From a virus, in IMG/VR virus record IMGVR_UViG_3300047462_000177: DNA of 61,857 nucleotides; one strand, given 5' to 3'. Positions 1,646-58,629 of the stretch are shown in pieces (positions within the stretch are counted from its first letter, which is position 1; each line of letters starts with the position of its first letter). The position numbers and the translations under genes are program-made. Below the pieces are notes generated by a model that saw only the letters and a list, made by a program, of their open reading frames with translations, made no database searches and was not told the DNA's origin.

Positions 1646-1672
1646 GGCAGACGCCTGCGATGCACCGCGAGA
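1646..1672. repeat. GC-rich dispersed repeat family 1, copy A
   Basis: ggcagacgcctgcgatgcaccgcgaga is identical over 27 nt to 58492-58518. Confidence 0.85.
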
Positions 1673-1676
1673 ACCA

Positions 1677-1769
1677 TTAGAACGGGTTCTTGTGGGTGAC
1701 GATGATGTAGATGTACAGAGCAGCGGCACCTAAGATTCCTCCGGTACTTATTAGCAGTAAGGCATACAT
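1677..1769 (-). CDS. possible 30-aa hydrophobic peptide
   Basis: Hand translation gives MYALLLISTGGILGAAALYIYIIVTHKNPF. It is below the track threshold and has no clear SD. Confidence 0.25.
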   Translation of the reverse strand: MYALLLISTGGILGAAALYIYIIVTHKNPF

Positions 1770-1812
1770 GGTGTGTAAGCTTTCAGGTGATTAGGTATTA
1801 TGTTAGGTTGAG

Positions 1813-4533
1813 CTATGTCGTATCTGCTTGATCGGGTTTGGGTGTGGGGAGCTCTGTGACGCGGTATGTTTGTTGGCCACTCTGTTCCCCAGCCATTCGG
1901 ACTCCGGCTGTGGACGCTATCAGACTGTAATGTGCCTTGAAATACCTGTCTAGGCGGCGAGCATTAGATAGGATAGGATTACTACGGAACTCACCCATCT
2001 CAACCCAAGCAACTATGTCTAGCATAGTGAAAAGATCCTGAGGACTGCCTTCTCGCCAATTAGTCGTGAACTCGATGATACCCTGAAGCACCCAATCGCT
2101 ATCCGTCGAGGCATTAAGCTGGATCTCCTTCACAGTCTTACGCACGAAGGATTTATCCATACCCACTACTCGAGCTGCAATACCTAAGGCTTGCTCTAGA
2201 TTGGCTAGGCGATGGATAGTATGGAAATTCTCATCCCAGCCACCTTCTTCGACAGGTTTGGCTGCCAACTTGAAGAACCTATGGAGGAATACCAATTGAT
2301 GGGCCATCCACATTTCTCGGCCACCAAACAATTCCATCTTCTTCCGCACCCAATCACTATCGGGGGCCTTGCCTAAGTTGCAAGTCTCGAATATGGTGGA
2401 TCTGGAGAAGAGGTCGGCATTCTGGAAGGGTTGTGTGACAGCTGTGAAACCGAACGTCACATCAACCGGGAATCGAATTAGATCGGCAGTAGTGTAGAGT
2501 TGTCGTACCTCAATCGTGGGATGCGGCTCTGTAGTGAGTCGACAGATCTCGTCTGACATCCTTTGCTTCAGGTCATTCTTGGTGAAGTGGACGTTATCAA
2601 TCACGTGTAGGCCGCCACTATTGGCAAGGGAAGCCTGCCAGTCCTTAATGTCATTAGGCAGATTACGCAGATGAGGACGACCTGTTAGGATATTTAGGCG
2701 CATCTCGTAGAGGCTAGACTTACCACTTCCAGGACCACCTATCATGATCTCCACAGGTAGTTGGATACCTTTCCAACGTTGGAGCCAAGGTGAGATGTAG
2801 TAAAGCAAGGTAGCTAACTCGCGCATACGATGCCCCTGAGGGCTTATCGGGATATCTAGTGAATCTACCTCATCAGGATTCTTATCAGGAAAGGCTGTCT
2901 GGAGGTCCTTCAAATTCCTGCCAATGTTAGTATCCTGGAGGATTTCCCACCACCAGGGTGCTAAAGGCCCTGGCTCCGCATTGATCTGCTCGAAAGCCTC
3001 TAAGACCGTATCTACGTCAAGGGGCTCGACATGATTCTGTTCGAAGAGCAAGCCTAGATCACCATTAGTGCAAAGCTTAATAGGCTCTTCTGTACTTGAT
3101 GAGACAGTGATGAAATTGCTGTCCCCTACTTGGATAGCTATACCATTTGGGTTAGTTGGATCTTCCTTCTCCGTTACTAATGCTCGTACGCGGCGAGGTG
3201 TCACATCCACGATGGGTTCTTCACCTGTAAACTGTGATGCCAACCATGTCAAGACTTTGATGTCACCAGCTCCTAGCCCAAATCTCTGGTACAGTAGGAC
3301 ACCAAAAGGAGTCTCATGCATGAACTGCCCACGACCATTGAGGATAGTAGCAGGCATTAACTTGTATGTCTCCCTGTTGTAGTAGTATGGCTGCCCTGAA
3401 TAAGTATCTCGGAATCGCATCCCATCAGAATCAAGCTCTGCCATGATAACATGGCCAATCTGCTGTGCTAGTTTTCGGTCTTGGAAGTTATTCAGTTGTG
3501 TCCCCAAGAACCCCTTTGAGTTAGGATGTCTAGGGAATTTAGTAGGATCATGGAAGATCTCATGCATCTCCCTGATTATCTGTGACGGCCCATGGATCAT
3601 CAAGTAGTCATCGAGGCCTGTCTTAGTATCCTCATCAGGATGCACTACAGCATCTGCAGGCCTATTGTGGATGTCTGGTAGGATCAACTGTCGGATGCGA
3701 GTTGCGGGCAAACCTAGGTATCGCAATTCATAGCCTAGCATAGTCAATGATCGTTGGATGTCTGCTTTCATTGTCCCGCCAATATCACTATCAAAGATTA
3801 GTACAGGCGTGATATTGAACTGGTTAATGACATCCATCATGTCTTGGAAGCCTTCAGCAAGTGTCATCATTTCAGGCAGTCTGGTATTGCTTCCAGGTAG
3901 CTTGGCTTTGATATCTTGCTTGTTGGAGGTAAGCTCTACTTCCTTTGGCAAGCTTATAGTCCGTGATTTCCAAGAGTCGACACCGCCAAGACCAACAGTA
4001 GGGATTCCCATCTTGGTAGCACAGGCAGCCTTCTTCTCTCCCTCGGTGATCACAAGCATGGCTTGTTGTGGCCACTTTTTCACCCAAGCAATCAGGGTGG
4101 CGTAGAACGCTGGAGGGAAATAGATATGGTTATTGGACTTAGTTGGCTGTCTGTACTTAGAGCCTGACACATTGCTGTTGAAGACCTTAACACGGTAGAA
4201 ATCAATTACAGCTCCTCTTATCGTGTAGTAGGGAATCTTATACCCATCAGCATTTAACGCACCAATAGACCTGCGCATATCAGCATTAAGGAACTGTACA
4301 TCTAGTTCCTCAGGTGTGAGACCACTCTTCGCTAAGTCCGCTATGACTCTTGGATCATATACCTGTTTTGGGTCCTTACCTGATTTTAGGTCAGTAAACA
4401 AGACAACGTTTCCTCCTAGGTCCTCCCCCGAGGGCCCAGAATTAACCGTATTAGGGTCCATTTTAGTTAGCCTCAGACTATAGACTCTTAGTTGCCTAGT
4501 TCCCCACAAAGCTAAGAGTCTGTCAACCCCCAA
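1813..4533 (-). CDS. bifunctional DNA primase / P-loop helicase (Toprim/DUF3854-like N-terminal half plus SF3/D5-like ATPase)
   Basis: ITEGEKKA..GLGGVDSW..IFDSD Toprim-like acidic motifs and a GGPGSGKS Walker A. The likely true start is the ATG at 4461 (MDPNTV) with GAGG upstream. Confidence 0.75.
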   Translation of the reverse strand: MGVDRLLALWGTRQLRVYSLRLTKMDPNTVNSGPSGEDLGGNVVLFTDLKSGKDPKQVYDPRVIADLAKSGLTPEELDVQFLNADMRRSIGALNADGYKIPYYTIRGAVIDFYRVKVFNSNVSGSKYRQPTKSNNHIYFPPAFYATLIAWVKKWPQQAMLVITEGEKKAACATKMGIPTVGLGGVDSWKSRTISLPKEVELTSNKQDIKAKLPGSNTRLPEMMTLAEGFQDMMDVINQFNITPVLIFDSDIGGTMKADIQRSLTMLGYELRYLGLPATRIRQLILPDIHNRPADAVVHPDEDTKTGLDDYLMIHGPSQIIREMHEIFHDPTKFPRHPNSKGFLGTQLNNFQDRKLAQQIGHVIMAELDSDGMRFRDTYSGQPYYYNRETYKLMPATILNGRGQFMHETPFGVLLYQRFGLGAGDIKVLTWLASQFTGEEPIVDVTPRRVRALVTEKEDPTNPNGIAIQVGDSNFITVSSSTEEPIKLCTNGDLGLLFEQNHVEPLDVDTVLEAFEQINAEPGPLAPWWWEILQDTNIGRNLKDLQTAFPDKNPDEVDSLDIPISPQGHRMRELATLLYYISPWLQRWKGIQLPVEIMIGGPGSGKSSLYEMRLNILTGRPHLRNLPNDIKDWQASLANSGGLHVIDNVHFTKNDLKQRMSDEICRLTTEPHPTIEVRQLYTTADLIRFPVDVTFGFTAVTQPFQNADLFSRSTIFETCNLGKAPDSDWVRKKMELFGGREMWMAHQLVFLHRFFKLAAKPVEEGGWDENFHTIHRLANLEQALGIAARVVGMDKSFVRKTVKEIQLNASTDSDWVLQGIIEFTTNWREGSPQDLFTMLDIVAWVEMGEFRSNPILSNARRLDRYFKAHYSLIASTAGVRMAGEQSGQQTYRVTELPTPKPDQADTT

Positions 4534-5431: not shown

Positions 5432-5827
<396 letters not shown>

Positions 5828-6582: not shown

Positions 6583-6636
6583 TGGTCAAAATGAAGACCA
6601 GTCTTAGATTTCTTGTGGTCCAACACGCTGAGGTGA

Positions 6637-6661
6637 GGCAGACGCCTGCGCCGCGACGCGA
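6637..6661. repeat. GC-rich dispersed repeat family 1, copy B
   Basis: ggcagacgcctgcgccgcgacgcga is identical over 25 nt to 6890-6914. Confidence 0.85.
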
Positions 6662-6671: not shown

Positions 6672-7427
6672 TTAGTTATTGTCCTCCTCTTCTGCTTTCA
6701 TGTCTTCTGGTGACATGTATTTGATGTAGGTCTCGCCAAAGGTTCCTTGACCAATGTCCAAGCAACCACCTGCAGCTAAGTCTGCGATCTCATGTGGATG
6801 GATTATGAGCACCTTTGTGGGTGTAGTCTTTTGTTCAGCCTGTCTTTTGGCAAGGATAGTTAAAAAACGGAGCTCTGGGGTGAATGTAGGGCAGACGCCT
6901 GCGCCGCGACGCGACAGGTCGACGCTACGGAGTTGAGTGCGAAGCAATTTAGCTGCATCACTGCCAATACCATCTTTTAGACCTATAGCATAGGCTTGAT
7001 TAACTAGATGCTGCAGCATTAACTGGATATCAAGTTCTGGTAAGGAGCAATTGGCTCCCCTCAGTTGCTGAGCGTAGACAGCTGCATGATCACGGACGTC
7101 GTCGACTTGAGGCGCCTCAGTGATTTTATAGTCCTCACGTTCAGCTACCTCTATGTAGAAGACTGAGTCGTCGTAGACTTGCTCACCATCATCGATCGCC
7201 TCCCAGATGTACTTGGGTTTGGACCCAAAGCCAAATGGCCACATAACCCTTGTTGGGTTCTGGATCTCGTACAGCTTGCAGATGTTATCAATACAATCCG
7301 CGATCTTTTGATGTGACTTGGCAGGCATTATCACAGGTACAGGGAAAGAGACCTCGATCTTGCTGATCTTCCTACGCTCCATTTTCCGTTCGCTGTCGTT
7401 GCTGTTGTCGTTCGAATTCGTGTTCAT
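6672..7427 (-). CDS. hypothetical protein (251 aa from the ATG at 7427)
   Basis: The track ORF extends to 7574, but the upstream gene stops at 7430-7432 and an ATG (MNTNSNDNS) follows 2 nt later. Repeat copy C lies in frame inside this gene. Confidence 0.6.
   Translation of the reverse strand: MNTNSNDNSNDSERKMERRKISKIEVSFPVPVIMPAKSHQKIADCIDNICKLYEIQNPTRVMWPFGFGSKPKYIWEAIDDGEQVYDDSVFYIEVAEREDYKITEAPQVDDVRDHAAVYAQQLRGANCSLPELDIQLMLQHLVNQAYAIGLKDGIGSDAAKLLRTQLRSVDLSRRGAGVCPTFTPELRFLTILAKRQAEQKTTPTKVLIIHPHEIADLAAGGCLDIGQGTFGETYIKYMSPEDMKAEEEDNN
6877..6914. repeat. GC-rich dispersed repeat family 1, copy C (inside coding sequence)
   Basis: 6877-6903 is identical to 58479-58505, and 6890-6914 is identical to 6637-6661. 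Confidence 0.85.
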
Positions 7428-8303: not shown

Positions 8304-8648
8304 TTACTGTAGGTGTTGGAGGAGAAACTTACCTGGGAGCAGGTTCGCGTCCCAGATATTGAGAGCCTGGTAGATGCTGAATCCTGTGGAGAGGAACATT
8401 ACCAGCAATAGTGCCGATCGAAACGTGATTGGCGGGCGCCGAAAGCAGCGCGAAGCGCTTGGAACCCTTGGAATTGGAACCCTTGCTTTTGGACTTGGAA
8501 TTGCAACTTGCGCGCGTGTTATGCCTGCAAATACCGTAGTAGTGAGACAGGCTGCCTGGATCACTACTTGGCGACCAAGCATGTAGACCGCATGGAGATC
8601 ACCTGAGGACTTTGCCAGCAACGTTAGAGTAAGTTCATCAGGGCTCAT
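8304..8648 (-). CDS. hypothetical membrane protein
   Basis: ATGA start/stop overlap with 8645..9079 at 8645-8648. C-terminal hydrophobic segment ALLLVMFLSTGFSIY. Contains repeat family 2 copy E. Confidence 0.45.
   Translation of the reverse strand: MSPDELTLTLLAKSSGDLHAVYMLGRQVVIQAACLTTTVFAGITRAQVAIPSPKARVPIPRVPSASRCFRRPPITFRSALLLVMFLSTGFSIYQALNIWDANLLPGKFLLQHLQ
8447..8467. repeat. GC-rich dispersed repeat family 2, copy E (partial)
   Basis: agcgcgaagcgcttggaaccc matches the reverse complement of 42837-42857. Confidence 0.8.
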
Positions 8649-9079
8649 TTGAAGAGCCCTCCGTGAAAACTTGCCTGATGGTGTGATGACATCATCAGAG
8701 CCAAGAAGCCCAGAGTCAAGAAAGTACATGCCATGAACACGTAATAGCCTGCACCTTTCTTCCCTGCGCTTTTCTCCGCCTGTTTGATCACCATCCACGT
8801 TACGTCAGCTGCTGGCGTTTTCCACCCGTACTCGTTGGTTGAAAATAACGCCGCCAAGCGTTGTTTCTCCAGCTCTAGTAGTTCTTCCTTGGTATGCTGA
8901 ACATGCGTTCGTCGTACACCGCTAGACTTTGTATGTATCCGGCGTGCATATGTGTTGACGTTCTGTTGGACACTCTGAGCATCGAGCTGTGCCGCGATAG
9001 CCTGCTGCACATGTAAAGGCATCTTAGCTAAGTCAGCTGCTGTTAATGCATTCTTGCCCATGATCAGCTTAGACCCCAT
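8645..9079 (-). CDS. hypothetical protein with a C-terminal TM segment
   Basis: 144-aa ORF with a YYVFMACTFLTLGFLALMM hydrophobic tail. Confidence 0.55.
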   Translation of the reverse strand: MGSKLIMGKNALTAADLAKMPLHVQQAIAAQLDAQSVQQNVNTYARRIHTKSSGVRRTHVQHTKEELLELEKQRLAALFSTNEYGWKTPAADVTWMVIKQAEKSAGKKGAGYYVFMACTFLTLGFLALMMSSHHQASFHGGLFK

Positions 9080-11415: not shown

Positions 11416-11464
11416 GTGTCCAAATGATGTGCGCTCAAGATTCTCTTTTTTGAGATTCGCCCCG

Positions 11465-11498
11465 TTGACGGGGGCACGAGTAAGCGCGAAGCGCTTGG
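11465..11498. repeat. GC-rich dispersed repeat family 2, copy F
   Basis: ttgacgggggcacgagtaagcgcgaagcgcttgg is close to the reverse complement of 42842-42876. Confidence 0.8.
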
Positions 11499-12325: not shown

Positions 12326-13504
12326 TCAGAGCATCTGCAGGTTGAAGTAATTGAAGGGTTTGTTAGGGATGTCGTTCCCGTTTTCGTCCCAAGGGATGGA
12401 GATACGTTCGTAGTAGTTGTCGCGAGGGCTTGGGTTGTCAATGTCTTGGAGCCTCTGTTTTTGGAGGAATTCATGGAAGGGCATTGTGCTTGTGTAGGCT
12501 TTGTACGCATTCTGGTAGAGCACTGTATCTGACTCGATCGTGATGTACAGCTCTAAGCGACGTCGGTGTGCTCTTTTCTGGTTTGGGTCTTGTTGTGCTT
12601 GATTGTCGTGCTGAGTTATTGGGAGAGCGCGATACGTGCTCATAAGCTGTTGGATCTTTGGATAGTTTTGCTGTAGATGGTCAAAAATGCGGTAGTAACC
12701 TAAGTGAGGTCTTGGCGAGATGCGGATGATGTCCATCATGATGCCAATGTTTACTTCGGAGTATGACATATTCGGGAATTCGTCGGAGCTTTCCAATTGG
12801 TTTGCACGTTGGTTGGTGTAGGGTTCGATCAATGAGCTCACTTTTGAGGGATCGTCGTAATTACCTTCTTGCCATGCCTCTGCAATGGATTTGTAGGGAG
12901 TCCTGTACTCTTCGCTGCTGTGAGGCTCGGTGTATAGACCACCTGGGATGATGTAGGTTTGGTTAAAGTAGTTGGTTAGATTGCCTGTTGTGGCGATGTA
13001 TATGATTTCCTTGCATATCTTACCAGGAATACCGAAGTGACGTGCGATTTGAGCTAACGGGACGCCATGTGTGGTGTGTGCCGTAGCAATCTCGAAGGCT
13101 GTATCGTGTTGGATACCCTGTAAAGGGTCGTTCCAGCTCAAATTTTCCAGGTTACAGAGTTTGAACCTGTCGCTTACCTTGTAGCTCACATGGCATTTTA
13201 CCATAGGTGGACCACGAAATGTGGTTAGGATGACACGCGCTAAGGGGACTTGTTTTGAGTCTATGGAAACTATCCGGTACCCACCGTGGTTTATTGTAGG
13301 TTTGACGCGTCGTGTCTGGTCGTCTCTGAATAGTTGGCTGTCTCGCAGGACCTCACCATCAGTTGAAGCCCAGTATGGCAAAGTGGTGTCAGGTATCTTG
13401 GCATACAGTAAGGGGTGTTTGGGATCTCGCTGCTTCTCCAGTTCTGCTCTGGTAGGGTAACCCGGTCCAACGGTGGGATCCGTATTGCTGTACATATAGG
13501 GCAT
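12326..13504 (-). CDS. NUMOD4/HNH-like homing-endonuclease-like protein
   Basis: YWASTDGEVLR..HGGYRIVSI (NUMOD4-like), CHVSYKVSDRFKLCNLENLSW (HNH_3-like) and VPLAQIARHFGIPGKICKEIIY (HTH). Confidence 0.55.
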   Translation of the reverse strand: MPYMYSNTDPTVGPGYPTRAELEKQRDPKHPLLYAKIPDTTLPYWASTDGEVLRDSQLFRDDQTRRVKPTINHGGYRIVSIDSKQVPLARVILTTFRGPPMVKCHVSYKVSDRFKLCNLENLSWNDPLQGIQHDTAFEIATAHTTHGVPLAQIARHFGIPGKICKEIIYIATTGNLTNYFNQTYIIPGGLYTEPHSSEEYRTPYKSIAEAWQEGNYDDPSKVSSLIEPYTNQRANQLESSDEFPNMSYSEVNIGIMMDIIRISPRPHLGYYRIFDHLQQNYPKIQQLMSTYRALPITQHDNQAQQDPNQKRAHRRRLELYITIESDTVLYQNAYKAYTSTMPFHEFLQKQRLQDIDNPSPRDNYYERISIPWDENGNDIPNKPFNYFNLQML

Positions 13505-13517
13505 TTGATTTAGGGCT

Positions 13518-13543
13518 CTGTTGCTGTTGCTGTTGCTGTTGCT
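13518..13543. repeat. tandem hexamer (ctgttg)x4 in the 5' leader of 12326..13504
   Basis: Read directly from the sequence. Confidence 0.9.
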
Positions 13544-42816: not shown

Positions 42817-42836
42817 CGTAGTAGGTCCAAGACCAA

Positions 42837-44876: not shown

Positions 44877-47546
44877 TTATTCACTATCCGCATCTGCAAG
44901 CGGTACAAAACCAAACGCAGTGAGGCCGTCGGAGGGATCCCAGTCATTGTCAAGATCCTCCGTATCTCCTTCGTTGCTTGTTCCACCGTCACTGGGGAAG
45001 ATGATGGGTGGTTGTTGCAGCGTAGGCTTAGACGCCAGTAGGCTAGTGTTGCGTCGTAAATCGTTGAGTAGGTCAACAACCCTTTGTGAGGGCCTGAACC
45101 TGGTATCAGGGTCATTAGATTCTGGCTCATAGTTGTATGGCTCCTTGCGATAGATTCCCCAACGCTTACCTACGTCACCCTCAGCCTTGAATGGGACAGC
45201 TTTGAGACCCCATTCAGGAGCTATGGATTCCATGCATTGCTCTATGACCCACTTAGCCCACGCTATTACTTCTGGGATATCCGGACACTCGAACATAGCC
45301 TCATCGTGGACTGCATTCACCGGATAGATACCCCAGAAGTCTAGTATCTCTGCCGCCTTGGCTGCTCCTAGACCGCAGATCTCAGATGCAATGGATTGAT
45401 GAGGGAAATTGGATGCCTCATTCTGCAACGCGCTGAGATTCTCCCTTGTGACGATCATATGCCTTTTCTTGCGGCCAAAAGGTGTGACTAATGTAGTCCC
45501 TGTAATAGGAGCGGCTCGGCACCTATCGATGAATGCCTTTGCCTTAGGTGATCGCTTGAACCACCTGTCAATCCACTTCTGAGCTTCCTGCACTGGGAGC
45601 TTATACTCGTCCGCAAGGCTCTCCGCCGTACGGCCATACACGACGCCGAAGTTAACGGCTTTTGCACGGATAAGCTCCTCACCACCTTGATGGCTTTTCT
45701 TGCCCCCGCGTGCTTTCCAACCGGGATAGAATTCTTCAGCTGTTTCAGAATGCAGTGAGCGGGTGTTTGAACAATATACCTCGAGGAGATAGTCATCAAG
45801 GCTGGTACAAGCGAGAGATCTCAGCTCTGCCTGATTTAAGTCTACCTTGATAAACACATACCCAGGGGAGGCACAATACATTCCACGCAGTGCAGTATCT
45901 CGTGGGATGTTTTGCATATTCGGACCACGGCTACTGAGCCTACCCGTCCTGGTTCCGTGAATGAGATAGGTACTATGAACACGTCCGTCAACGTTGACAT
46001 TCTTCTTGAGAGAGTCGACATATGTGCTCTTTGCTTTCTGTGCTCTTCTGTAATCCTGCAATGCTGTCAGTACAGGGTGTTTGGGAAGGCTAGCCAGAAC
46101 TTCTTTACCAGTGCTGCGACTCCCAGCTCTGGGAGGTACGAACTTGAGGACGTCCCACAGGAGGTGTGCAAGCTGCTTAGGCGATCCTGGGTTAATATCA
46201 GTTCCACCAACTCTTCGAACAATTTCCTGGAGGCGTTTGTTAGCGTCCTCGATTCGTGCTTGTAGGACTCTTGCTTGCCGCTCAACTCTATTGGGACAGA
46301 CTGTGATGCCCCGCTTCTCGATCTTGTACAGGTACTCTGATGCTGTGAGGAGAACACGGGTGTAAAGGGTATCCAGTCGGCTATCAGATCGCACCTGTTC
46401 TCTAAGCGGATTAAATATCTGCCTGGTGTTAGATGTATCAAGGGCGAGGTAGTGGTAAAGAATGTGTCGAGGAATGACTCGATAAGAGGTGCTCCTCCTG
46501 GGTAGATACGGCTTAAGCATGTGCTTGTAATCAGGTGCCCCAATAAGGTCTCCTGATACCTGCTCCAAGTCATGGATACCTCCTACCTCATCTAAGGTAT
46601 AGCTGAGCAGCATCGTGTCTTCATCAACCCTACTGTGAGGGGTAATATGATGGCGCATGAAGCGCATATCAAATTTGCCATTATGCCAAATGAATTGGGG
46701 ACCTTTATTGATGAAGATCTCCGCTGTCGTAGTAGGATATCTACTGGCAACCTCACCAGGTATGATGTACACCTCTTCGGGGTCTGCACATAAACCTATG
46801 GCAAGGACTTCATCTGTCAGGTGATTGAAACCTGCAGTCTCCGTATCAGCTGCAATGTATGGCTTATCTTTGAGCGTGTTGTAGATCTCCCAGAGGTCAT
46901 CTTCTGTGTCTGCAATGTACCAAGTAGGGACTATTGGCTTCTTGGGAGGTGTACCACGTAGGAGATCAAAAGCATAGGTGAGATCATTTCGGAATTGTCT
47001 GTAGTTTCCCGTACCCCTTAAGAGTGCAGCTGGATGGACGATGGGGAGTACCCCAATACTTGCATGTGGCGATTGTACGAGCATACCACGTACCTGGGTG
47101 ATCTTCAGGTTTGAGTTACCTAACACCACACGTGATGCATGGTTCCCCATAGTCACGATCACTTTCCGAGGATGTCGTGTCAACTGAGAGAATAACCTTG
47201 AGCGGCATACATCTGCTCCTGTTGACACTAAGGCTGTGTTCTTCTTGGCATCCTTAGTGGATGGTGGGCGGCACTGCAAAGTGTTTAGCACTAAGATGTC
47301 GTTCTCAGGGGAGATCCCCCAAGACCTTAACTCAGTTGGGAGTGATCGCCAGAACAGGTCACCAGATGGGCCCGTTAAAGCCCACCTACTGTTCAGCTCT
47401 TGGATACCAGGGGCCTCACCTACAAAGACAATCGGAGCCTCAGGATTCCCTCTGCTGCCGCATTTAGGTCCCCCGTACGGACAAGATGGGCATGCTCCTA
47501 GGTTGCTGGGGTGGTTCGGTTTCGGCCCTGCTAACAATCCACCCAT
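44877..47546 (-). CDS. DNA polymerase I family A with 3'-5' exonuclease and an N-terminal family-4 UDG-like domain
   Basis: UDG block: CPSCPYGGPKCGS..FVGEAPG..LNTLQCRPP. Exo I: ADTETAGF. Pol motif A: DLNQAELR. Motif B: RAKAVNFGVVYG. Motif C: VHDEAMFE. Confidence 0.85.
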   Translation of the reverse strand: MGGLLAGPKPNHPSNLGACPSCPYGGPKCGSRGNPEAPIVFVGEAPGIQELNSRWALTGPSGDLFWRSLPTELRSWGISPENDILVLNTLQCRPPSTKDAKKNTALVSTGADVCRSRLFSQLTRHPRKVIVTMGNHASRVVLGNSNLKITQVRGMLVQSPHASIGVLPIVHPAALLRGTGNYRQFRNDLTYAFDLLRGTPPKKPIVPTWYIADTEDDLWEIYNTLKDKPYIAADTETAGFNHLTDEVLAIGLCADPEEVYIIPGEVASRYPTTTAEIFINKGPQFIWHNGKFDMRFMRHHITPHSRVDEDTMLLSYTLDEVGGIHDLEQVSGDLIGAPDYKHMLKPYLPRRSTSYRVIPRHILYHYLALDTSNTRQIFNPLREQVRSDSRLDTLYTRVLLTASEYLYKIEKRGITVCPNRVERQARVLQARIEDANKRLQEIVRRVGGTDINPGSPKQLAHLLWDVLKFVPPRAGSRSTGKEVLASLPKHPVLTALQDYRRAQKAKSTYVDSLKKNVNVDGRVHSTYLIHGTRTGRLSSRGPNMQNIPRDTALRGMYCASPGYVFIKVDLNQAELRSLACTSLDDYLLEVYCSNTRSLHSETAEEFYPGWKARGGKKSHQGGEELIRAKAVNFGVVYGRTAESLADEYKLPVQEAQKWIDRWFKRSPKAKAFIDRCRAAPITGTTLVTPFGRKKRHMIVTRENLSALQNEASNFPHQSIASEICGLGAAKAAEILDFWGIYPVNAVHDEAMFECPDIPEVIAWAKWVIEQCMESIAPEWGLKAVPFKAEGDVGKRWGIYRKEPYNYEPESNDPDTRFRPSQRVVDLLNDLRRNTSLLASKPTLQQPPIIFPSDGGTSNEGDTEDLDNDWDPSDGLTAFGFVPLADADSE

Positions 47547-48920: not shown

Positions 48921-49658
48921 CTACTTGATGCCGGCTACGGCAAAGAATTCCGATCGTGCTGATGGCACATCTCGGAAGAGTCCTCGCACGCAAGATGTGG
49001 AGGTCAGGGTGTCAGGAGTATACACACCTCGACAGGCCATACAGGTATGTAGGCTCTTGATCACTGTTATAGTTCCGTTGGCATCTGTGTAGTCATGTAG
49101 TACGTCTGTTATCTCTTCGCAGAAGATTTCCTGCATGCCTGGACGTGATGTACCAACTGCTTGTACAAGGCGGGCAATCTTGGAGAGGCCGACAACTTTG
49201 CCCCTAGGTATATAACCAACGCAAGCGTGACCCACAGCAGGAAGAAGGTGATGTTCACAGATCATCCTAAAAGGTATGTTGCTTTGTACGATGACGCCTC
49301 CGATGTTCTCAGCCTTAGTTCCCTCGAAGAGGTCTCCTAAGACATCCTTCGGAGTGTAAGGCTTGTTGAACTCAGCTAGGTACTTGAGGAACCTCAGAGG
49401 TGTCTTAGCTTGCGCATCATCAGATTCCCAACCATACATGATGTTCAGCACATGAGCCATGGCATCTACAGCTATCTGCTTCACGCCAGGTACAGGCTCG
49501 TAGTCCGGATTGAGCCCGTCGGCTTCGGCTTCGGCTTCGGCTTCGGCTTCGAGTTCAGTTGGAATGGGAGCTACAGGTGTTGGCTTTCCTTTTTTCCTGT
49601 ATCTGTGGTGACTATTGAAAGCCTGTGCAGGTGTTATCTTACTTGAGGATTTACGCAT
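48921..49658 (-). CDS. folE: GTP cyclohydrolase I
   Basis: ICEHHLLPAVGHACVGYIP..VVGLSKIARLV. The N-terminal extension contains (EA)x5, encoded by (cggctt)x5 at 49520-49549. Confidence 0.85.
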   Translation of the reverse strand: MRKSSSKITPAQAFNSHHRYRKKGKPTPVAPIPTELEAEAEAEAEADGLNPDYEPVPGVKQIAVDAMAHVLNIMYGWESDDAQAKTPLRFLKYLAEFNKPYTPKDVLGDLFEGTKAENIGGVIVQSNIPFRMICEHHLLPAVGHACVGYIPRGKVVGLSKIARLVQAVGTSRPGMQEIFCEEITDVLHDYTDANGTITVIKSLHTCMACRGVYTPDTLTSTSCVRGLFRDVPSARSEFFAVAGIK

Positions 49659-49663
49659 ATCTG

Positions 49664-50431
49664 TTAGACTCCCAACTTGTGACCATACAGCATGGCGTGC
49701 ATTTGCGGAAGGATGGAGACATTAGCAAGGCCATACTTCTGAGCCTCTTCGATCAGCCAGCGATACCTGGTAAGGATCTTGCTAGCTAACACATCACTGT
49801 CAGTCTCGCCGTTATTCTGTGTACCTACTGACAGGAAGAAGTTGACCCTAGGATAGTCAGCATGTAGTTGAGTTGCCCACTCAAGATCTTCAAGATCCAT
49901 TATCACCACCTTGAGGCTAATGCGAGGGGGTGCAATGAGAGATGAGTAGGCTGAGAGCATGTCGCGGTCAAGTTTCTCAGCCATGCCACTGCTTGGTGGC
50001 TTGGGAGAGACTGTGACACTATCGCAGTTGATAAGCCACTGCTTGAAGAACTGCCCCTGTGTCTCGATGGCTACCCGAAAGCCCTCATAGTGAAGTCTAT
50101 CGATCAGCGGTGAGAGCTCATACATCACAGGATCACCACCAGAGATAGTTACCCACTTGGCTCCAGTGTGGGGGCTTCCAAGTTGCAAGAGGGCATCCGT
50201 GATCTGAGTAACTGCTAGGCGCTTGGCGTTCTTCTTCACCTCTTCAGGGAGGACTGCGTGGAGGCTGTCACACCAGTCACACCTGTACCCGCATCCTCCC
50301 AGACGTAGGAAATGGGTAACACGGCCTATCATTGCTCCCTCACCCTGAATAACAGGACCAAATATCTCAATGACAGGCAGCCGTTTGTCTTCGGCTATGT
50401 ACTCGTAAGATACTTTAGCATCGGTAGTCAT
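49664..50431 (-). CDS. queE: 7-carboxy-7-deazaguanine synthase (radical SAM)
   Basis: VIQGEGAMIGRVTHFLRLGGCGYRCDWCDS. Confidence 0.85.
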   Translation of the reverse strand: MTTDAKVSYEYIAEDKRLPVIEIFGPVIQGEGAMIGRVTHFLRLGGCGYRCDWCDSLHAVLPEEVKKNAKRLAVTQITDALLQLGSPHTGAKWVTISGGDPVMYELSPLIDRLHYEGFRVAIETQGQFFKQWLINCDSVTVSPKPPSSGMAEKLDRDMLSAYSSLIAPPRISLKVVIMDLEDLEWATQLHADYPRVNFFLSVGTQNNGETDSDVLASKILTRYRWLIEEAQKYGLANVSILPQMHAMLYGHKLGV

Positions 50432-50952
50432 TGTGGGTACCTCGCAGAGCAGTTAGGTGTCTCGAAGACCTCGACCTCACTCAGCTCTGCAAGGCCTTGA
50501 CTCAGCTCATGGACTCTATCTACCATCAGCTTAAACCAGAACTCTGCAAGGCGTTCAGCTGTAGGAATGAAAGGCACAACGAGAACCTTTGTCTGATTTC
50601 TGTCGCGGTTTTCGTTTACTAGGCAGTAGATCATGGGTTCCCGCTTCACTGTGTGGATAACCATGTCACGGTACTGTTTAGCTGGTATCATGACATGCAG
50701 TAGTGGATCATCAACCCATACCACAGTTCCATGATCACATAGGTCATCACAGTACTCCATCATGACATGCTTGAGGAAGCCGAAGTCTAGAACCATATCA
50801 GTCTGGAATCCTTCTCTGTGTAGTTCTGATGACTTGCACGTGGCATTGATCGTGTATCGATGTCCATGCCAGTTCCAGCACTTCGAGCCATGTGTAGGCA
50901 CACGATGACCAACATCGATGCCTATTTGTCTCGTAATCGAAAAGCCTCCCAT
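50428..50952 (-). CDS. queD: 6-carboxy-5,6,7,8-tetrahydropterin synthase
   Basis: GHRVPTHGSKCWNWHGHRY (H..C..HGH). Confidence 0.8.
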   Translation of the reverse strand: MGGFSITRQIGIDVGHRVPTHGSKCWNWHGHRYTINATCKSSELHREGFQTDMVLDFGFLKHVMMEYCDDLCDHGTVVWVDDPLLHVMIPAKQYRDMVIHTVKREPMIYCLVNENRDRNQTKVLVVPFIPTAERLAEFWFKLMVDRVHELSQGLAELSEVEVFETPNCSARYPQ

Positions 50953-50979
50953 CGTATCAACCTTTCTCCTCGAATTTGA

Positions 50980-51837
50980 TTAGAATGGTATGGTATCATT
51001 TCCCATGTCTGTGCCGTGATCTGGTTTGAGCCCTCGCTGGACAAAGGCTTTTGGCTCATCAACCATGTAATCTGGGGCTGGTGTTGTATAAGTACCGTGA
51101 AGTGATCCGTGAGACACTAGGAGACCATCTTCATATGTGGTAGGATCCGGTAGTTGCGCTAGCTGGAAGGCTTCTTTGCGAGCACGGCATGTAGGGCAAG
51201 TGCCGCAGTGTTTCTCTTTCCCGTCATAGCAGCTCCACGTTAGATCGTAAGGCAGTCCCAACTTGGAGCCAATCTCGACGATAGACTTCTTCTCCATATG
51301 GGTGAATGGGGTGATGAGCCTCACGCGACGATAGGTGCCGAGGTGGATAGCAGACGCCATGACACCTATGAACTCGGGGGTACAGTCTGGATAGGCATCT
51401 CGAGCTGCATCATCAGCATGGGCGCCGAACCAGATAGAGGCTTTTGCGTTGATCCCCAGCTTATCTTGTTCCATGATCCAGCCCTGTGCAATGCCTGCGA
51501 TTCGTGACAGAAGCTGTCCATTCCTGAAGGGAACGTACGTAGGCGAGATGCCTTCTGGCAACTCAGCATAAGTCGAACTTGGAAGCTTGATACTTGGATC
51601 TGTGAGCATGCTCTTCGGTGGATATGCCATCGAGACTGTCTCATGGCTGACACCGAAGAAGTCACAGAGTTTCTGTGCGAACTCCGTTTCTTTCTTGTGT
51701 CTTTGTCCGTAGTCGACAGAGATGCTCACGACATCATGCCAGATACCCTCTGAATAAGCTTCAGCTCTCGCCATAGCAAGGGCTGTCGAACTATCAACAC
51801 CCCCACTATGTAAAACGAATGACCGGTGCAAATCCAT
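50980..51837 (-). CDS. queC: 7-cyano-7-deazaguanine synthase with a C-terminal extension of about 55 aa
   Basis: VLHSGGVDSSTAL PP-loop and the zinc site CYDGKEKHCGTCPTCRARKEAF. Confidence 0.85.
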   Translation of the reverse strand: MDLHRSFVLHSGGVDSSTALAMARAEAYSEGIWHDVVSISVDYGQRHKKETEFAQKLCDFFGVSHETVSMAYPPKSMLTDPSIKLPSSTYAELPEGISPTYVPFRNGQLLSRIAGIAQGWIMEQDKLGINAKASIWFGAHADDAARDAYPDCTPEFIGVMASAIHLGTYRRVRLITPFTHMEKKSIVEIGSKLGLPYDLTWSCYDGKEKHCGTCPTCRARKEAFQLAQLPDPTTYEDGLLVSHGSLHGTYTTPAPDYMVDEPKAFVQRGLKPDHGTDMGNDTIPF

Positions 51838-51881
51838 TACCTTCTCCTTTTCCTTCTCTGGGTGTGAAGCCTGAAGTCGAA

Positions 51882-51931
51882 CCTAACCTAACCTAACCTA
51901 ACCTAACCTAACCTAAGCTAACCTAACCTAG
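51882..51931. repeat. pentanucleotide array (cctaa)x10, which reads (TTAGG)n on the coding strand
   Basis: Lies in the 222-nt gap between the DUF669 SSB stop and the queC start. Unit 8 is gctaa and unit 10 is cctag. Confidence 0.9.
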
Positions 51932-52059
51932 ATGTGCAGGGCATTGTGCTATAGCCCACAGTTGGCTTGCTGTCCTTGGTTCCTGCCGCGGGAATTGTGT
52001 CTTTCCTCAGAATGCCTCACTGAGCCGCGATAAACACCTAAGTTCTACTGCTGGGTTGG

Positions 52060-52593
52060 TTAGACGCCTGCGAAGGCGCCACCGCCACCAGCTGCAGCTC
52101 CTGCAGGACCAGGAGGCAGGACATCTTTGACATCGTTGCCTTTCTTGCCCTGGTAGACACGGATATCCAGTCGCACCTTGGCTCGTGCCCCGAGTAGGCG
52201 CCCTTCGTCGGCGACTGTCTGGGGATTGAACTTCTGGTTCAGCAACGCCTGTGGGTAGCCGTCGTCAGTCTGAATCCGAGCAAGAGTACGCTTGACACGA
52301 GGCAGACCGCCTTCATTGAAGACGGTATGGTAGAACAGCTTGCGGCCGTTGAACTCACCTCCATCAACTTCGAATACCCATGTCCACATGGGGTTGTTCG
52401 ACCTCTGACTCTTGCCGAAGTCCAGTTGGACCACGGTGACGTCATACAGGCCACGAGGCATGGCAACAAAGTTACCCTCCTCGTTGACGCCACCGAGGTC
52501 TACGACAATGCCATTGCCGTCTTCAGTCTCGACGTTGGCATCATCAGCTTCGGCAGTACCCGCAGCTTCAGCAAATGCGTTAGACATAGTCAT
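52060..52593 (-). CDS. DUF669-type single-stranded DNA-binding protein
   Basis: MPRGLYDVTVVQLDFGKSQRSNNPMWTWVFEV..GRKLFYH, plus synteny with the AAA_24 and Cas4-like genes. Confidence 0.6.
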   Translation of the reverse strand: MTMSNAFAEAAGTAEADDANVETEDGNGIVVDLGGVNEEGNFVAMPRGLYDVTVVQLDFGKSQRSNNPMWTWVFEVDGGEFNGRKLFYHTVFNEGGLPRVKRTLARIQTDDGYPQALLNQKFNPQTVADEGRLLGARAKVRLDIRVYQGKKGNDVKDVLPPGPAGAAAGGGGAFAGV

Positions 52594-56577: not shown

Positions 56578-56578
56578 A

Positions 56579-57520
56579 TCACATGTCCTCCTTGTGACGC
56601 CAGCCTACGAAGACTGGATGTCTTGCAACCTTATCTGTGCCATGTGGTAGGAACTTATACTTGAGGATCCTCCCCATGTAGTTCTGGGGGTTCATCCAGA
56701 TCTCTCGGCGCTCATCATGATTAAAGCCGCTGCCTACTCTGACTTCCCACCCATACTTAAGATCATTGATGATGACCCTACCCATCATGGCTAAGCCACT
56801 CTTGTTCTCCTTATGCGACGAACGCACCTGATAGCCTCTAGCATCAACCGTCGCTGGGTTGTCGTTATGTAGCATCTCCTCGAAGCCAGTGACAACACCT
56901 TCAGCGTCCTCCCAACGCTTGAGTTTACCCATCCCCCCTTCTTTTTCCGTTGAGCGGCCAAACTTGTAGTTGCTAGTGGGGGATCTAACAATAAGACCCT
57001 CATAGCCTTTCTCAACAGCAGCCTGCTCTAAGCTGATGAGGTCAGGCAGGCATTCGATCCTGAACTGTTCAACAGGCACTAATCTAAAACTTGTATGGTA
57101 CAGTACCTTTGCATCTCGGGCTTTGTCATAGAGGAACTTCTGACGCTCCTCGAATGTCATCTCATTCCTGACGATGTCGAAGGCATGGAACCAAGGGATA
57201 ACCGAGGCATCCGTTGTCATGATGCCTGACACAGTTCTCTTGAAGACATCATTGCCTGTTGGTAGGCCAATGATGAGTTCGCCATCAACCCCCTCTAATT
57301 GTGGGATGGCAAACAGTTCTTGTGCTCGTTGGCTCCTGATGAGCTTGCCCGACCGAGAGATCAGCTGCCCATTCATAACCGTAGCCCGGATACCATCTAG
57401 CTTGTAGCTAGCATAGATCCTCTTATGGAACTGTAGGAGTCTCTCAAAGATCCTGAGATCCCCATCATACGCCAACATAGGCCGAAAAGGTTTAATGTTC
57501 ACGTTCACGTTCTCATGCAT
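56579..57520 (-). CDS. ATP-dependent DNA ligase
   Basis: Adenylation motif SYKLDGIR (KxDG), EGLIVR, and an OB-fold region of appropriate size. Confidence 0.85.
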   Translation of the reverse strand: MHENVNVNIKPFRPMLAYDGDLRIFERLLQFHKRIYASYKLDGIRATVMNGQLISRSGKLIRSQRAQELFAIPQLEGVDGELIIGLPTGNDVFKRTVSGIMTTDASVIPWFHAFDIVRNEMTFEERQKFLYDKARDAKVLYHTSFRLVPVEQFRIECLPDLISLEQAAVEKGYEGLIVRSPTSNYKFGRSTEKEGGMGKLKRWEDAEGVVTGFEEMLHNDNPATVDARGYQVRSSHKENKSGLAMMGRVIINDLKYGWEVRVGSGFNHDERREIWMNPQNYMGRILKYKFLPHGTDKVARHPVFVGWRHKEDM

Positions 57521-58121
57521 CTTTTAGGTCTTTCACCTTTGTGCCGTCATTGTCTTTGTCGTTTTTGTTGAGCATCAGGCTATACCAAGTACCTGCTTTC
57601 ATTAGCCTGGCACGAAGGCTTTGGTACGACATACCTAACTCACGTGCTAGAGTAGCAGCCGGGATCCTCTTGCCTGTCTTGGGGTGCAGTACGTAGTGTG
57701 TGCATCGCTTGTTGCTACCCTGCTCTTCATAGGTTGCCCATCTGACATTACCAGGGACATAATGGCCATTAGGATCAATTCTGTCAAGAGTATGATTCCT
57801 ACTAGGACGTAAGCCGACATCTTTCAGGAACCACTCAAAAGCCTGTAGCTTCGTAGGACCTAGATCACTATGAGGATCATCTGCGTGGGTAGGCTGCCAG
57901 CGATCAAACACATGTATGCCTCGCCCACCATACTCGGCATAGCCCACGTGTTTAGGATTGTTGCACCGCTCAAGCATCATGGAGAAGGAATTGTAAGATA
58001 GCCTACGCAAGAAGCATCCACGATCGGCTTCCTTTTTCTTCCGGTTAGGTCTTTTGTGTATCTTCCTCTTGCGAGGCTTGCCCTTCACCAGATGCTCGTT
58101 GGTGGTCTTGTCGTCATCCAT
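57513..58121 (-). CDS. HNH homing-endonuclease-like protein
   Basis: SFSMMLERCNNPKHVGYAEYGGRGIHVFDRW, then LDRIDPNGHYVPGNVRWATYEEQGSNKR, then a C-terminal HTH IPAATLARELGMSYQSL. Confidence 0.7.
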   Translation of the reverse strand: MDDDKTTNEHLVKGKPRKRKIHKRPNRKKKEADRGCFLRRLSYNSFSMMLERCNNPKHVGYAEYGGRGIHVFDRWQPTHADDPHSDLGPTKLQAFEWFLKDVGLRPSRNHTLDRIDPNGHYVPGNVRWATYEEQGSNKRCTHYVLHPKTGKRIPAATLARELGMSYQSLRARLMKAGTWYSLMLNKNDKDNDGTKVKDLKDA

Positions 58122-58133
58122 GGTCGTGCTACC

Positions 58134-58469
58134 TTAGAGTGGTAGATAGCCCTGAGGGTGGGTGATCAGGGTCTGGGTTTGGGTCTGTTGTTGTTGTCGG
58201 CGCTGTTGCTTGTTCAGACGGTGGTCTTTGCAGCGTGAGATGTCTTTGTGGCCATACATCTCCACCAGGAGCTTCCGTACATACACACCCGGGCGTAAGC
58301 CCTTGTTGTGGGCTTCTTTCCTGAGAATGGCTTCCAGCCAAACAGGGACTCTCAAGGAGATAATGGTCCCTACGACCTGATCTGGCGGAAGCCTCCGCTC
58401 AGGGCGGGGATCTGTTCTAAGTCCACGGGTTCGATTTTTGTTAGTCACAGCCGTAATCTTCATGCTCAT
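58134..58469 (-). CDS. ribbon-helix-helix (CopG/Arc-like) DNA-binding protein
   Basis: IISLRVPVWLEAILRKEAHNKGLRPGVYVRKLLVEMYG. The start is set at the ATG at 58469 because the longer ORF begins inside repeat copy D. Confidence 0.55.
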   Translation of the reverse strand: MSMKITAVTNKNRTRGLRTDPRPERRLPPDQVVGTIISLRVPVWLEAILRKEAHNKGLRPGVYVRKLLVEMYGHKDISRCKDHRLNKQQRRQQQQTQTQTLITHPQGYLPL

Positions 58470-58629
58470 TCCCGCATCGGGGTGAATGTAGGGCAGACGC
58501 CTGCGATGCACCGCGAGACTTGTGGTAGCCATAGTAGGTACCTACTCCAAAGCCCCAGGCAAAGAATATGAGGAAGAGAGTTGTCTGTGCCCAGAACTTA
58601 GGCGTGTTGATGTCAGCGAAGATGCTCAT
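58441..58629 (-). CDS. small membrane protein whose C-terminal tail is encoded by repeat copy D
   Basis: TM segment TTLFLIFFAWGFGVGTYYGY. Confidence 0.4.
   Translation of the reverse strand: MSIFADINTPKFWAQTTLFLIFFAWGFGVGTYYGYHKSRGASQASALHSPRCGNEHEDYGCD
58479..58518. repeat. GC-rich dispersed repeat family 1, copy D
   Basis: 58492-58518 is identical to 1646-1672, and 58479-58505 is identical to 6877-6903. Confidence 0.85.

Follow-up and report, generated by a model that had tools for sequence, protein, structure and literature searches.

A GC-rich mini-repeat with mosaic arms in the replication-gene arm of a novel phage

In mosaic phages, as described by the modular theory, short boundary or 'linker' homologies are found at module junctions. 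Repeats of comparably small size are also known as mobile elements, among them the small dispersed repeats of cyanobacteria, the GC clusters of mitochondria and the Rickettsia palindromic elements (RPE), the last of which insert in frame into genes. REPINs are another type of very small mobile repeat (PMC3116915). Stoperators, in turn, are dispersed repressor-binding sites of Cluster A mycobacteriophages, which lie mostly in one orientation and often at gene ends (PMC6550527, PMC9283540).

The repeat described here, family 1, is a GC-rich sequence of about 35–40 bases that occurs in four copies in the replication-gene arm of an otherwise novel phage. The whole stretch of DNA analyzed (61,857 nt) is referred to below as the window; the phage genome is circular and about 61.8 kb long. 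Family 1 resembles stoperators in being a short dispersed phage motif that is conserved as DNA in any coding context.

Structure and placement of the repeat copies

The copies (A to D), a core-like site and the genes next to them are as follows, with coordinates in the window.

1637..1672, minus strand: copy A, 34–36 nt form; sense reading TCTCGCGGTGCATCGCAGGCGTCTGCCTGGCCACAG; untranslated
6628..6661, minus strand: copy B, 34 nt form; untranslated
6875..6914, minus strand: copy C, 40 nt form with an extra CTACAT; in frame in gene 6672–7427, where it encodes SRRGAGVCPTFTP
58479..58518, minus strand: copy D, 40 nt form; where ORFs 58441–58629 and 58134–58532 overlap
52059..52072, minus strand: core-like site, GTTAGACGCCTGCG (2 mismatches); at the stop codon of the SSB-like gene 52060–52593
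6672..7427, minus strand: conserved gene hosting copy C and followed by copy B; homologues in the relatives L009 (46% identity) and L010 (25%)
58134..58463, minus strand: orphan RHH-like ORF; strand-helix-helix pattern resembling ribbon-helix-helix DNA-binding proteins
57513..58121, minus strand: HNH endonuclease gene that follows closely downstream of the RHH-like ORF; confirmed with PHROGs
58441..58629, minus strand: small membrane ORF; first 30 residues conserved in the relative L017 (62% identity)

The 14-nt core of family 1, GGCAGACGCCTGCG, was found exactly at positions 1646, 6637, 6890 and 58492, in each case on the plus strand. Three longer identities, which had been reported in a sequence-only reading of this DNA, were confirmed: 27 nt between 1646–1672 and 58492–58518, 25 nt between 6637–6661 and 6890–6914, and 27 nt between 6877–6903 and 58479–58505. 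Exact repeated 25–27-mers have a chance expectation of about 1e-6, and the family 1 identities are the longest dispersed repeats of the window, the overlap of the circular assembly excepted. A scan for the core with up to 2 mismatches gave five matches against 0.47 expected, a number reached in none of 100 shuffles, and nhmmer returned exactly four family 1 copies. The core-like site lies in the family orientation (nhmmer E = 0.65); it is probably due to chance, or possibly a fifth copy that has degenerated. Copies B, C and D were present at 100% identity in independent Logan assemblies of other runs (L001, L024), and therefore the repeat is not an assembly artefact. Other assemblies of the phage were 100% identical to the window.

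The unit is compact (34–40 nt), and comparison of the four copies revealed no homology in the flanks beyond it. Its sense-strand sequence is TCGCG-NN-GC-NN-CGCAGGCGTCTGCC with a C-rich tail behind it. It contains two short dyads, GCG-N6-CGC and the near-palindrome GCAGGCGTCTGC, each 12 nt long and spaced 10 bp from centre to centre. All four copies are placed the same way round, co-oriented with leftward transcription, within a 10.3-kb arc of the genome that makes up 16.6% of the circle (p of about 0.018 for co-orientation and clustering of this degree).

Copy A begins 7 nt past the stop codon of the 29-codon ORF 1680–1769 and lies about 50–60 nt upstream of the -35 element of promoter 1586–1557. 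Copy B begins 10 nt past the stop codon of gene 6672–7427, about 46 nt upstream of the -35 element of promoter 6582–6553. As had been described earlier, both are thus intergenic and untranslated, while copy C is translated inside 6672..7427 (in a stretch containing SRRGAGVCPTFTPE) and copy D overlaps two ORFs, 58441–58629 and 58134–58532. In the former of these ORFs copy D occupies the tail, which is not conserved, and its distance from the start of the RHH-like ORF is 10–16 nt upstream. The three reading frames counted in the sequence-only reading are reduced to two credible translated ones: Shine-Dalgarno spacing indicates that ORF 58134–58532 likely starts at the ATG at 58463, and the peptide RRRLPYIHP would therefore be a mere N-terminal over-extension. 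Because the repeat is untranslated in two copies (A, B) and differently framed in the other two (C, D), its likeness is kept at the level of DNA or RNA and not of protein, in agreement with the proposal that selection acts on the nucleotide sequence.

The copies had also been called chimeric, and the alignment bore this out. One version of the left arm is found in A and D (alike at 11/11 positions) and the other in B and C (11/11), the right arm is common to C and D, and A and B carry a short right arm. All four possible pairings of left and right arm are present, and hence recombination between copies has taken place within the core. Copy D is an exact chimera, in which the left arm and core of A are joined to the core and right arm of C. 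In the sole pair that shares no arm, A and B, the core shows 0/14 differences as against 7/20 in the arms, i.e. an arm divergence of about 35% around an invariant core (Fisher p = 0.014; with four copies and two versions per arm such statistics are modest, p of about 0.01–0.02, and partly post hoc). Between the two versions of the left arm, the only differences fall on two pairs of positions that mirror each other in the dyad.

Another repeat family, family 2 (core AGCGCTTCGCGCT), is likewise missing from relatives and consists of four copies in which a palindromic GC core stays invariant between mosaic flanks. All but one of these copies sit at gene ends, the exception being within a called gene, and they run in the direction of transcription; the family occurs in both transcription arms, late genes included, and its strand flips with the arm. 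Family 2 has the same architecture as family 1 but an unrelated sequence and a stronger, 5-bp hairpin. The common design points to a general process in this phage.

Relatives and sequence collections

The relatives compared have 47–80% protein identity to the window phage (71–80% for the closest), and the core was missing from L009, L010/L011, L014/L015, L016, L017 and L019. At the position of copy B, L009 and L010 have an ExoX-like_C gene instead. In L017, the membrane ORF runs directly into the HNH gene, with neither copy D nor the RHH ORF, and at site A in L016, L009 and L010 nothing lies between the small ORF and a conserved promoter box. Copies A, B and D are situated in hypervariable gene junctions, and copy C in a variable linker of a conserved gene. 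The repeat thus occurs both between genes (A, B) and in frame in a conserved protein (C); copy C is lacking in the L009 and L010 orthologues, and the protein of gene 6672–7427 is 7 residues longer at this place than these homologues (extra VCPTFTP).

Family 1 is neither host-derived nor a common sequence. The 25-mer had 0 matches in IMG/VR, and the metagenome and genome collections contained isolated single chance matches only, in genomes of 61–71% GC and for example inside secA. A scan of 185,579 species genomes gave just three single matches, all in high-GC genomes. When a CRISPR repeat was considered, no locus with multiple matches was found in the genome, metagenome or viral collections, the matches being single and in coding or GC-rich DNA; a solitary CRISPR repeat unit or mini-array was rejected. 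According to the sequence-only reading, its proposal would stand or fall with rarity of the unit in unrelated genomes and conservation in close relatives. The unit was indeed not common in other genomes, but it was not conserved in the closest relatives compared. By this standard the outcome is mixed, and long-term selection on family 1 is therefore unproven.

Origin of the repeat and alternative explanations

We tentatively suggest that family 1 is a young, lineage-specific copy-and-paste mini-repeat and that its invariant near-palindromic core is a putative protein recognition site; 'young' here means only younger than the divergence of the closest relatives, at 71–80% protein identity. The unit of 34–40 bp would have been inserted at four sites of the 10-kb replication-gene arm that tolerate indels. 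Three of these sites are hypervariable gene junctions and the fourth is a variable linker in a conserved gene, where copy C could survive because it lengthens the gene by a net 21 nt and keeps the frame. Later, short-patch recombination, either gene conversion or template switching, may have crossed over in the shared core and exchanged the arms, which would have yielded every left/right arm combination. As the core is invariant while the arms differ by about 35%, it may be recognized sequence-specifically by a protein, either a factor that promotes copying or a regulator.

Among the roles listed in the sequence-only reading, a small mobile element or recombination fits best, in view of the arm combinations, the absence from relatives and the +7-codon copy C. 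Several points count against copying and pasting. The copies have neither target-site duplications nor terminal inverted repeats nor a conserved target sequence, a core of 14 nt is short for homologous recombination, and no transposase, recombinase or integrase was detected among about 50 ORFs scanned. Family 1 is best described as a small lineage-specific repeat, recently copied and of unproven function, and not as a new kind of system.

The main rival is an operator or roadblock resembling a stoperator, a possible but rather unlikely role. The two dyads would bind a dimer of dimers of a small phage protein, and binding at the ends of gene units would reduce read-through or control the promoters that follow closely on A and B. 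Such a role would account for the invariant near-palindromic core with a second dyad one helical turn away, for the co-orientation of all four copies with transcription, for the position of three of the four at gene ends and for the strong promoters 46–60 nt downstream of A and B. Stoperators, too, are short, dispersed and mostly in one orientation relative to transcription (PMC6550527, PMC9283540). The orphan protein 58134–58463, whose ORF adjoins copy D, is a weak candidate for the binder: its best fold matches were Arc, VapB, NikA and AvtR, but the RHH assignment is itself weak (pLDDT of the predicted structure 60, all Foldseek E values at least 1.2, no Pfam or PHROG match and no homologues found). 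Moreover, there are only four sites, all of them clear of promoters, and the scan gave no promoter at C or D. Copy C lies inside a gene, exact identity extending 11–13 nt into the arms is unexpected of binding sites, and no sign of lysogeny genes was seen in the phage.

Alternatively, the copies might be neutral scars of break repair or template switching, i.e. filler templated from a nearby copy at indel junctions, with neither recognition nor function; the invariance of the core would then reflect microhomology for switching, plus chance. All four copies lie exactly at spots of indels or gene turnover in the relatives, from which they are missing; they are clustered within 10 kb, and copy D is a perfect two-template chimera. 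Nevertheless this origin is unlikely, since two separate families share one architecture and a transcription-tied orientation, the arms of A and B have diverged by about 35% around an intact core, suggesting some age together with constraint, and the changes in the left dyad are mirrored.

The co-orientation with transcription, and the strand of family 2 that flips with the transcription arm, would also be consistent with a sense-strand RNA element, in which small hairpins or a linear motif in early mRNAs serve processing, stability or the binding of a small RNA or protein. RNAalifold predicted two mini-hairpins with one G.U to U.G swap, and the imperfect positions are wobble pairs on the sense strand only. 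However, the covariation was matched by 79 of 500 shuffles, the stems have only 3–4 bp, and no complementary partner was found elsewhere in the genome. Folding energies were no better than those of shuffles on both strands in windows of 35–60 nt (sense z from -1 to +0.9), and Rfam 15 gave 0 matches in the whole window, which makes an RNA element distinctly unlikely. The RNA motif of the sequence-only reading was accordingly not supported, with folding z values near 0 on both strands and an alignment that supports a single wobble swap; the GCAG/CTGC hairpin given there exists on paper, but is thermodynamically unremarkable.

Other identities were not supported. A pac site, or the terminase recognition site proposed earlier, does not agree with copies that lie in the early arm, more than 9 kb from the head-gene block, which begins near 16 kb (portal gene 20342–22069). 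A consensus scan showed no intrinsic terminator at any copy, and a T-run after the element is absent. Programmed translational bypass at copy D, of the type found in T4 gene 60 and in mitochondrial byp elements, would lack a stop after any take-off codon as well as a stable hairpin, and the downstream ORF is provided with a start of its own; deletion of 40 nt would join both ORF frames, which has a one-in-three chance anyway.

Homing-like cleavage by an HNH endonuclease, with breaks in the core repaired from other copies and the arms co-converted, is very unlikely. Co-conversion around a break agrees with mosaic arms whose exchange points lie in the core, and copy D has an HNH gene at a distance of about 360 nt; a second HNH-type gene (12326–13504) was confirmed with PHROGs, and the 7-deazaguanine pathway genes carried by the phage could protect its own DNA. 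However, the HNH gene next to D is resident, being kept at the same position in L010, L014, L017 and L019, which have no repeat, and homing would leave insertion into new sites unexplained.

If the copies marked the ends of mobile cassettes, as att, lox or attC-like sites for a site-specific recombinase, hybrid arm combinations from crossovers in a common core would be expected, but this reading is highly improbable and appears largely refuted by conserved synteny: the ORFs scanned yielded no recombinase or integrase, the stretches separating the copies are occupied in relatives by syntenic core replication genes and not by cassettes, and the DNA from C to B makes up the essential 3' end of a conserved gene.

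Comparison with known systems

Stoperators measure 13–14 bp, have no shared flanks, are numerous genome-wide and act with a known immunity repressor of temperate phages, whereas family 1 consists of four copies in a 10.3-kb arc, with 25–27-nt identities and mosaic arms, and its only candidate binder is an ORF with a weakly predicted RHH-like fold. The boundary homologies of mosaic phages are similar to family 1 in lying at junctions of variable segments and in recombination within short shared sequences. They are, however, common to different phages at corresponding junctions, while family 1 is found at different junctions of one genome and not in relatives.

With the very small mobile repeats family 1 shares a length of tens of nucleotides, GC-richness, a partly palindromic sequence, dispersal and presence or absence between relatives; both are tolerated in frame in proteins, and in both the copies recombine together. 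These repeats differ in having tens to hundreds of copies and clear hairpins, and REP elements have the RAYT transposase, whereas family 1 has four copies in a phage setting, no significant hairpin and no transposase found. Membership in the REP/REPIN group was rejected: the MFE was not better than that of shuffles with stems of 3–5 bp, no RAYT or IS200-type transposase domain was found in the ORFs scanned, and only the three single matches occurred among the 185,579 genomes.

The class of in-frame mini-insertions (RPE- or GC-cluster-like) agrees with family 1 in its intergenic together with in-frame occurrence and its absence from orthologues. There is a small chance that the phage carries actively spreading mini-insertion elements of about 35–40 nt, in at least two families, which are copied by its own recombination or nuclease machinery into junctions and in frame into genes. 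If so, they would be a phage counterpart of the mitochondrial GC clusters and the Rickettsia palindromic elements, and the mobilizing enzyme would recognize them by the invariant palindromic core.

Exchange of arms between copies of a recent repeat

Family 1 is a compact, real and recently copied DNA repeat whose arms have been exchanged between copies. Both the coordinates and the identities assigned to it in the sequence-only reading proved exact on re-check against the sequence. All four copies lie in leftward genes, and the unit was therefore read on the minus (sense) strand, as follows:

1637-1672, minus strand, copy A: TCTCGCGGTGCAT-CGCAGGCGTCTGCC-TGGCCACAG
6628-6661, minus strand, copy B: TCGCGTCGCGG-CGCAGGCGTCTGCC-TCACCTCAG
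6875-6914, minus strand, copy C: TCGCGTCGCGG-CGCAGGCGTCTGCC-CTACAT-TCACCCCAG
58479-58518, minus strand, copy D: TCTCGCGGTGCAT-CGCAGGCGTCTGCC-CTACAT-TCACCCCGA

The left arm occurs in two versions (A=D and B=C) that differ at 4 of 11 positions, and these four positions form two mirrored pairs in a 12-nt dyad, GCG[G/T][T/C]GC[A/G][T/G]CGC, centred 10 bp from the centre of the core dyad. The core, an exact 14-nt segment common to all copies, includes GCAGGCGTCTGC, a palindrome but for a single mismatch at its centre (perfect-palindrome form, GCAGACGTCTGC). The right arm has a short form, in A and B, and a form with six additional bases, in C and D. All combinations of left and right arms are present, which requires that recombination or conversion ending in the core took place at least once. 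The copies had been described as chimeric, and D does join, without a mismatch, A (left arm and core, 27/27) to C (core and right arm, 27/27). Between A and B, the sole pair without a common arm, 7 of 20 arm positions differ, as opposed to 0 of 14 in the core (Fisher p = 0.014). Similarity is kept at the nucleotide level, as had been proposed.

The exact core was found four times in the window, every time on the plus strand. When up to two mismatches were allowed, five matches were detected against 0.47 expected, a number attained by no shuffle, and the chance expectation for exact repeats of 25-27 nt is ~1e-6. An nhmmer profile built from the four copies retrieved those four alone, the next-best match being at 52061 (E = 0.65). 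A core-like sequence with two mismatches, GTTAGACGCCTGCG, lies at 52059-52072 in the same orientation as family 1, overlapping the stop codon of the SSB-like gene, and is either a chance match or a decayed fifth copy. Outside the unit no homology was detected, the flanks of A to D being unrelated. Additional degenerate copies, a complementary partner and half-site enrichment were likewise absent from the window, with GCAGAC and GCCTGC at their expected frequency.

The copies are confined to 16.6% of the circle (p ~0.018) and are all co-oriented with transcription. On the circle, the start-to-start distance from D (58483) to A (1637) is 4982 bp, and from A to B (6628) 4991 bp. This near-equal spacing was taken as coincidence, since the intervals have no paralogous genes in common; the D-A interval also holds a collapsible tandem repeat of uncertain length.

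In public collections, the 25-mer of family 1 had no match in IMG/VR. With variable positions as N, single matches were obtained in three viral contigs, four metagenome contigs and three representative genomes. These are regarded as chance matches, because they are single and lie in DNA of 61-71% GC, several of them inside secA. The pattern did not occur as a repeat or array in these collections, within the limits of which a host REP element or CRISPR repeat was ruled out as the source.

The phage genome and its second repeat family

The window is a tailed-phage genome with a GC content of ~50%. The 29 bases at its start recur at its end, indicating a circularly closed contig of ~61.8 kb. Transcription runs leftward at 1-15 kb and 43-62 kb, and rightward at 16-43 kb. 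The genes identified encode a portal, a head protease, a connector, a PolA fused to a UDG-like domain, an SNF2 helicase, a PD-(D/E)XK nuclease, a DUF3854 primase-helicase-like protein of 906 aa, an SSB-like DUF669 protein, an AAA_24 protein, an ATP-dependent ligase, a RuvC-like resolvase, a thymidylate-kinase-like protein, two HNH-type proteins and the 7-deazaguanine enzymes FolE/QueE/QueD/QueC. Neither tRNA genes nor Rfam families were found in the window.

20342-22069: portal
12326-13504: HNH-type gene
57513-58121: HNH-type gene
44877-47546, minus strand: family A DNA polymerase, 889 aa, with N-terminal uracil-DNA-glycosylase-superfamily and 3'-5' exonuclease domains in one protein
48921-49658, minus strand: FolE
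49664-50431, minus strand: radical-SAM QueE-like gene
50428-50952, minus strand: QueD
50980-51837, minus strand: QueC

The last four genes form a 7-deazaguanine (preQ0/queuosine-type) cluster (48921-51837), which suggests that the phage DNA carries modified guanine; a gene of DpdA/TGT type was not identified. Megablast searches with both window ends revealed no close GenBank phages, and the closest GenBank phage match of the DNA polymerase was to Brevundimonas phages (37% identity).

The leftward genes are under strong promoters of sigma-70 type, which form a family. These early promoters (-35 at 1586, 5407, 6582, 10251, 11415, 13580, 14764, 54984 and 60173, minus strand) read TTGATT or TTGAGA, N17-18, TATAAT, and are preceded by a conserved box, CTCAAAAAAGAGAAT ... 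GGTGACC or GACCA. The box was also present in relatives with merely 50-76% protein identity (L009, ~8600-8660; L010, ~12770-12840; L016, ~2140-2205).

Contigs assembled from two other sequencing runs matched the window at 100% identity and covered copies B, C and D; they showed no strain variation. Many short tandem repeats were observed (1-38, 5442-5488, 13513-13541, 14096-14135 and 61811-61857, and further at 14412-14483, 15421-15470, 16285-16320 and 51880-51934), with units of 6-12 nt: TGTTGC, GGTTCT, CAAACCGTTC, CAACAAAGT, TTAGC, AGCCAGTCG and AACCT. Three of these repeats (5460, 13545 and 51891) coincide with the exact ends of same-phage contigs from the other runs, and repeat lengths may therefore be variable or collapsed in assembly.

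A second GC-rich repeat, family 2, is unrelated to family 1 and has the following copies:

8429-8494, minus strand: family 2 copy
11458-11498, minus strand: family 2 copy
29365-29402, plus strand: family 2 copy
42826-42876, plus strand: family 2 copy
16410-16423, plus strand: partial copy

The invariant, palindromic, GC-rich core of family 2, AGCGCTTCGCGCT (at 8447 and 11483, minus; 29365 and 42845, plus), forms a 5-bp stem, with a d(GCGAAGC) mini-hairpin motif in its complement, and the flanks are mosaic. Its orientation flips between the minus and plus arms, indicating that it tracks transcription direction. One copy lies in the called gene 8304-8648, one directly upstream of promoter 11415 and another after the last late gene. 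Family 2 was absent from the relatives. The presence of two unrelated families of like construction suggests a general process in this phage and not an isolated accident.

Sites of the copies in the window and in relatives

Homologues of the DUF3854 protein and of the 157-aa protein at 58636-59109 were numerous in soil/rhizosphere metagenomes and Logan assemblies. Gene order is kept between the window and the loci fetched for comparison.

Table. Fetched loci and their identity to the window protein
L016: 76%
L009 and L017 (same sample): 71% and 80%
L010 / L011: 51%
L014 / L015: 47%
L018 - L020: ~80%, part of the protein only

The sequence-only reading had named conservation in relatives as a check on its proposal. 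It was not observed, as neither the core nor a profile match was present in any fetched locus, indicating that the copies are younger than ~20-30% protein divergence among these phages.

A hydrophobic ORF of 29 codons, situated downstream of the DUF3854 gene, precedes copy A, and the -35 of promoter 1586 comes 50-60 nt downstream of the copy. At this site in L016, L009 and L010, a small variable ORF is followed immediately by the conserved promoter box (CTCAAAAAAGAGAAT...TTGAT...TATAAT), and no element intervenes.

Copies B and C are associated with one gene (6672-7427). Copy C lies in frame within it, 253 nt upstream of copy B, and the gene's orthologues in L009 (46% identity) and L010 (25%), aligned over the full protein length, lack seven residues (VCPTFTP) at this point, in a poorly conserved linker. 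Family 1 is thus tolerated in frame inside a protein. A target-site duplication at copy C (a CTCCGT pair around 54 nt) was rejected, because its removal would delete the entire linker kept in the orthologues. Copy B begins 10 nt past the stop of the gene, ~46 nt upstream of promoter 6582, and is followed by ancestral promoter-proximal sequence, GACCACAAGAAA; in L009 and L010 an ExoX-like_C gene follows the orthologue.

Copy D lies inside the tail of a small membrane ORF (58441-58629). It ends 10-16 nt before an orphan ORF (58134-58463, minus strand) begins, and an HNH gene follows that ORF. The membrane ORF of L017 matches residues 2-30 only and leads directly to the HNH gene; the window has a new tail with copy D and the orphan ORF instead. 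In L014, L010 and L019 the slot holds other genes, and it is hypervariable among the relatives. Translational bypass at copy D was rejected, as there is no stop after any take-off codon and no stable hairpin, and the downstream ORF has its own start.

The copies thus occupy spots of insertion, deletion or gene turnover in the lineage. At the same junctions, the relatives had promoter repeats only and no repeat family analogous to family 1.

Possible origin and role of family 1

The observations of the sequence-only reading stood, and its interpretation was borne out in part. The explanation ranked first, which is put forward tentatively as possible, is that family 1 is a copy-and-paste mini-repeat with a recognised core. 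The invariant near-palindromic core would be a protein recognition site, and copying may have occurred via short-patch recombination or template switching.

A stoperator-like operator or roadblock role, with the product of the orphan ORF as binder, is less likely. This ORF shows a strand-helix-helix pattern. An AlphaFold model from the single sequence was poor overall (pLDDT 60), with its two helices at 80-87, and the best PDB matches were nearly all ribbon-helix-helix proteins (VapB, Arc, NikA and AvtR), at E >= 1.2, below significance. No Pfam or PHROG match was obtained, nor any homologue in IMG/VR, GenBank phages or 1.8 billion representative proteins. The ORF is a candidate partner of family 1, as a lead and not a finding. 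A scan of ~50 ORFs revealed no transposase, integrase or recombinase.

Two further explanations are both improbable, and to the same degree. According to one, the copies are self-copying mini-elements. According to the other, they are neutral repair scars at sites of turnover, to be weighed against the invariance of the core. A sense-RNA element is more doubtful still. The orientation of the copies follows transcription, and an RNA motif or hairpin had been suggested, but the elements fold no better than shuffles on either strand, with or without context. There was no Rfam match, RNAalifold gave just two hairpins, of 3-4 bp, and one G.U/U.G swap, and the covariation level of the alignment was attained by 79 of 500 shuffles.

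An HNH target with co-conversion is very unlikely: an HNH gene does adjoin the orphan ORF, but it holds the same position in relatives without the repeat, which argues against a freshly invading homing cassette. Least probable are att-like cassette sites; a tRNA-derived or att-in-tRNA origin was rejected, as the window has no tRNA genes. A terminase or pac site was rejected, since the copies lie in the early arm, >9 kb from the head-gene block.

Family 1 is a well-verified yet small feature limited to its lineage, and its significance is modest unless the self-copying explanation is true. In that case, the repeats would show that insertions of very small size are able to reshape phage genes in frame and to mark sites of gene turnover. 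Should the core prove to be a genuine recognition site, it would open a way into the regulation or recombination of a large clade of soil/rhizosphere phages, uncultured and little characterised, that is marked by the DUF3854 primase-helicase, the PolA-UDG fusion and 7-deazaguanine genes.

Among known systems, stoperators (PMC6550527, PMC9283540) share with family 1 the orientation rule and the placement at gene ends; they differ in copy number, in having a known repressor and in lacking the shared flanks. REP/REPIN sequences (PMC3116915) and in-frame mini-elements resemble family 1 in small size and insertional behaviour, whereas their hairpin, copy number and transposase are not matched. Family 1 is a new, lineage-specific case within a known class, the short dispersed repeats of phage genomes.
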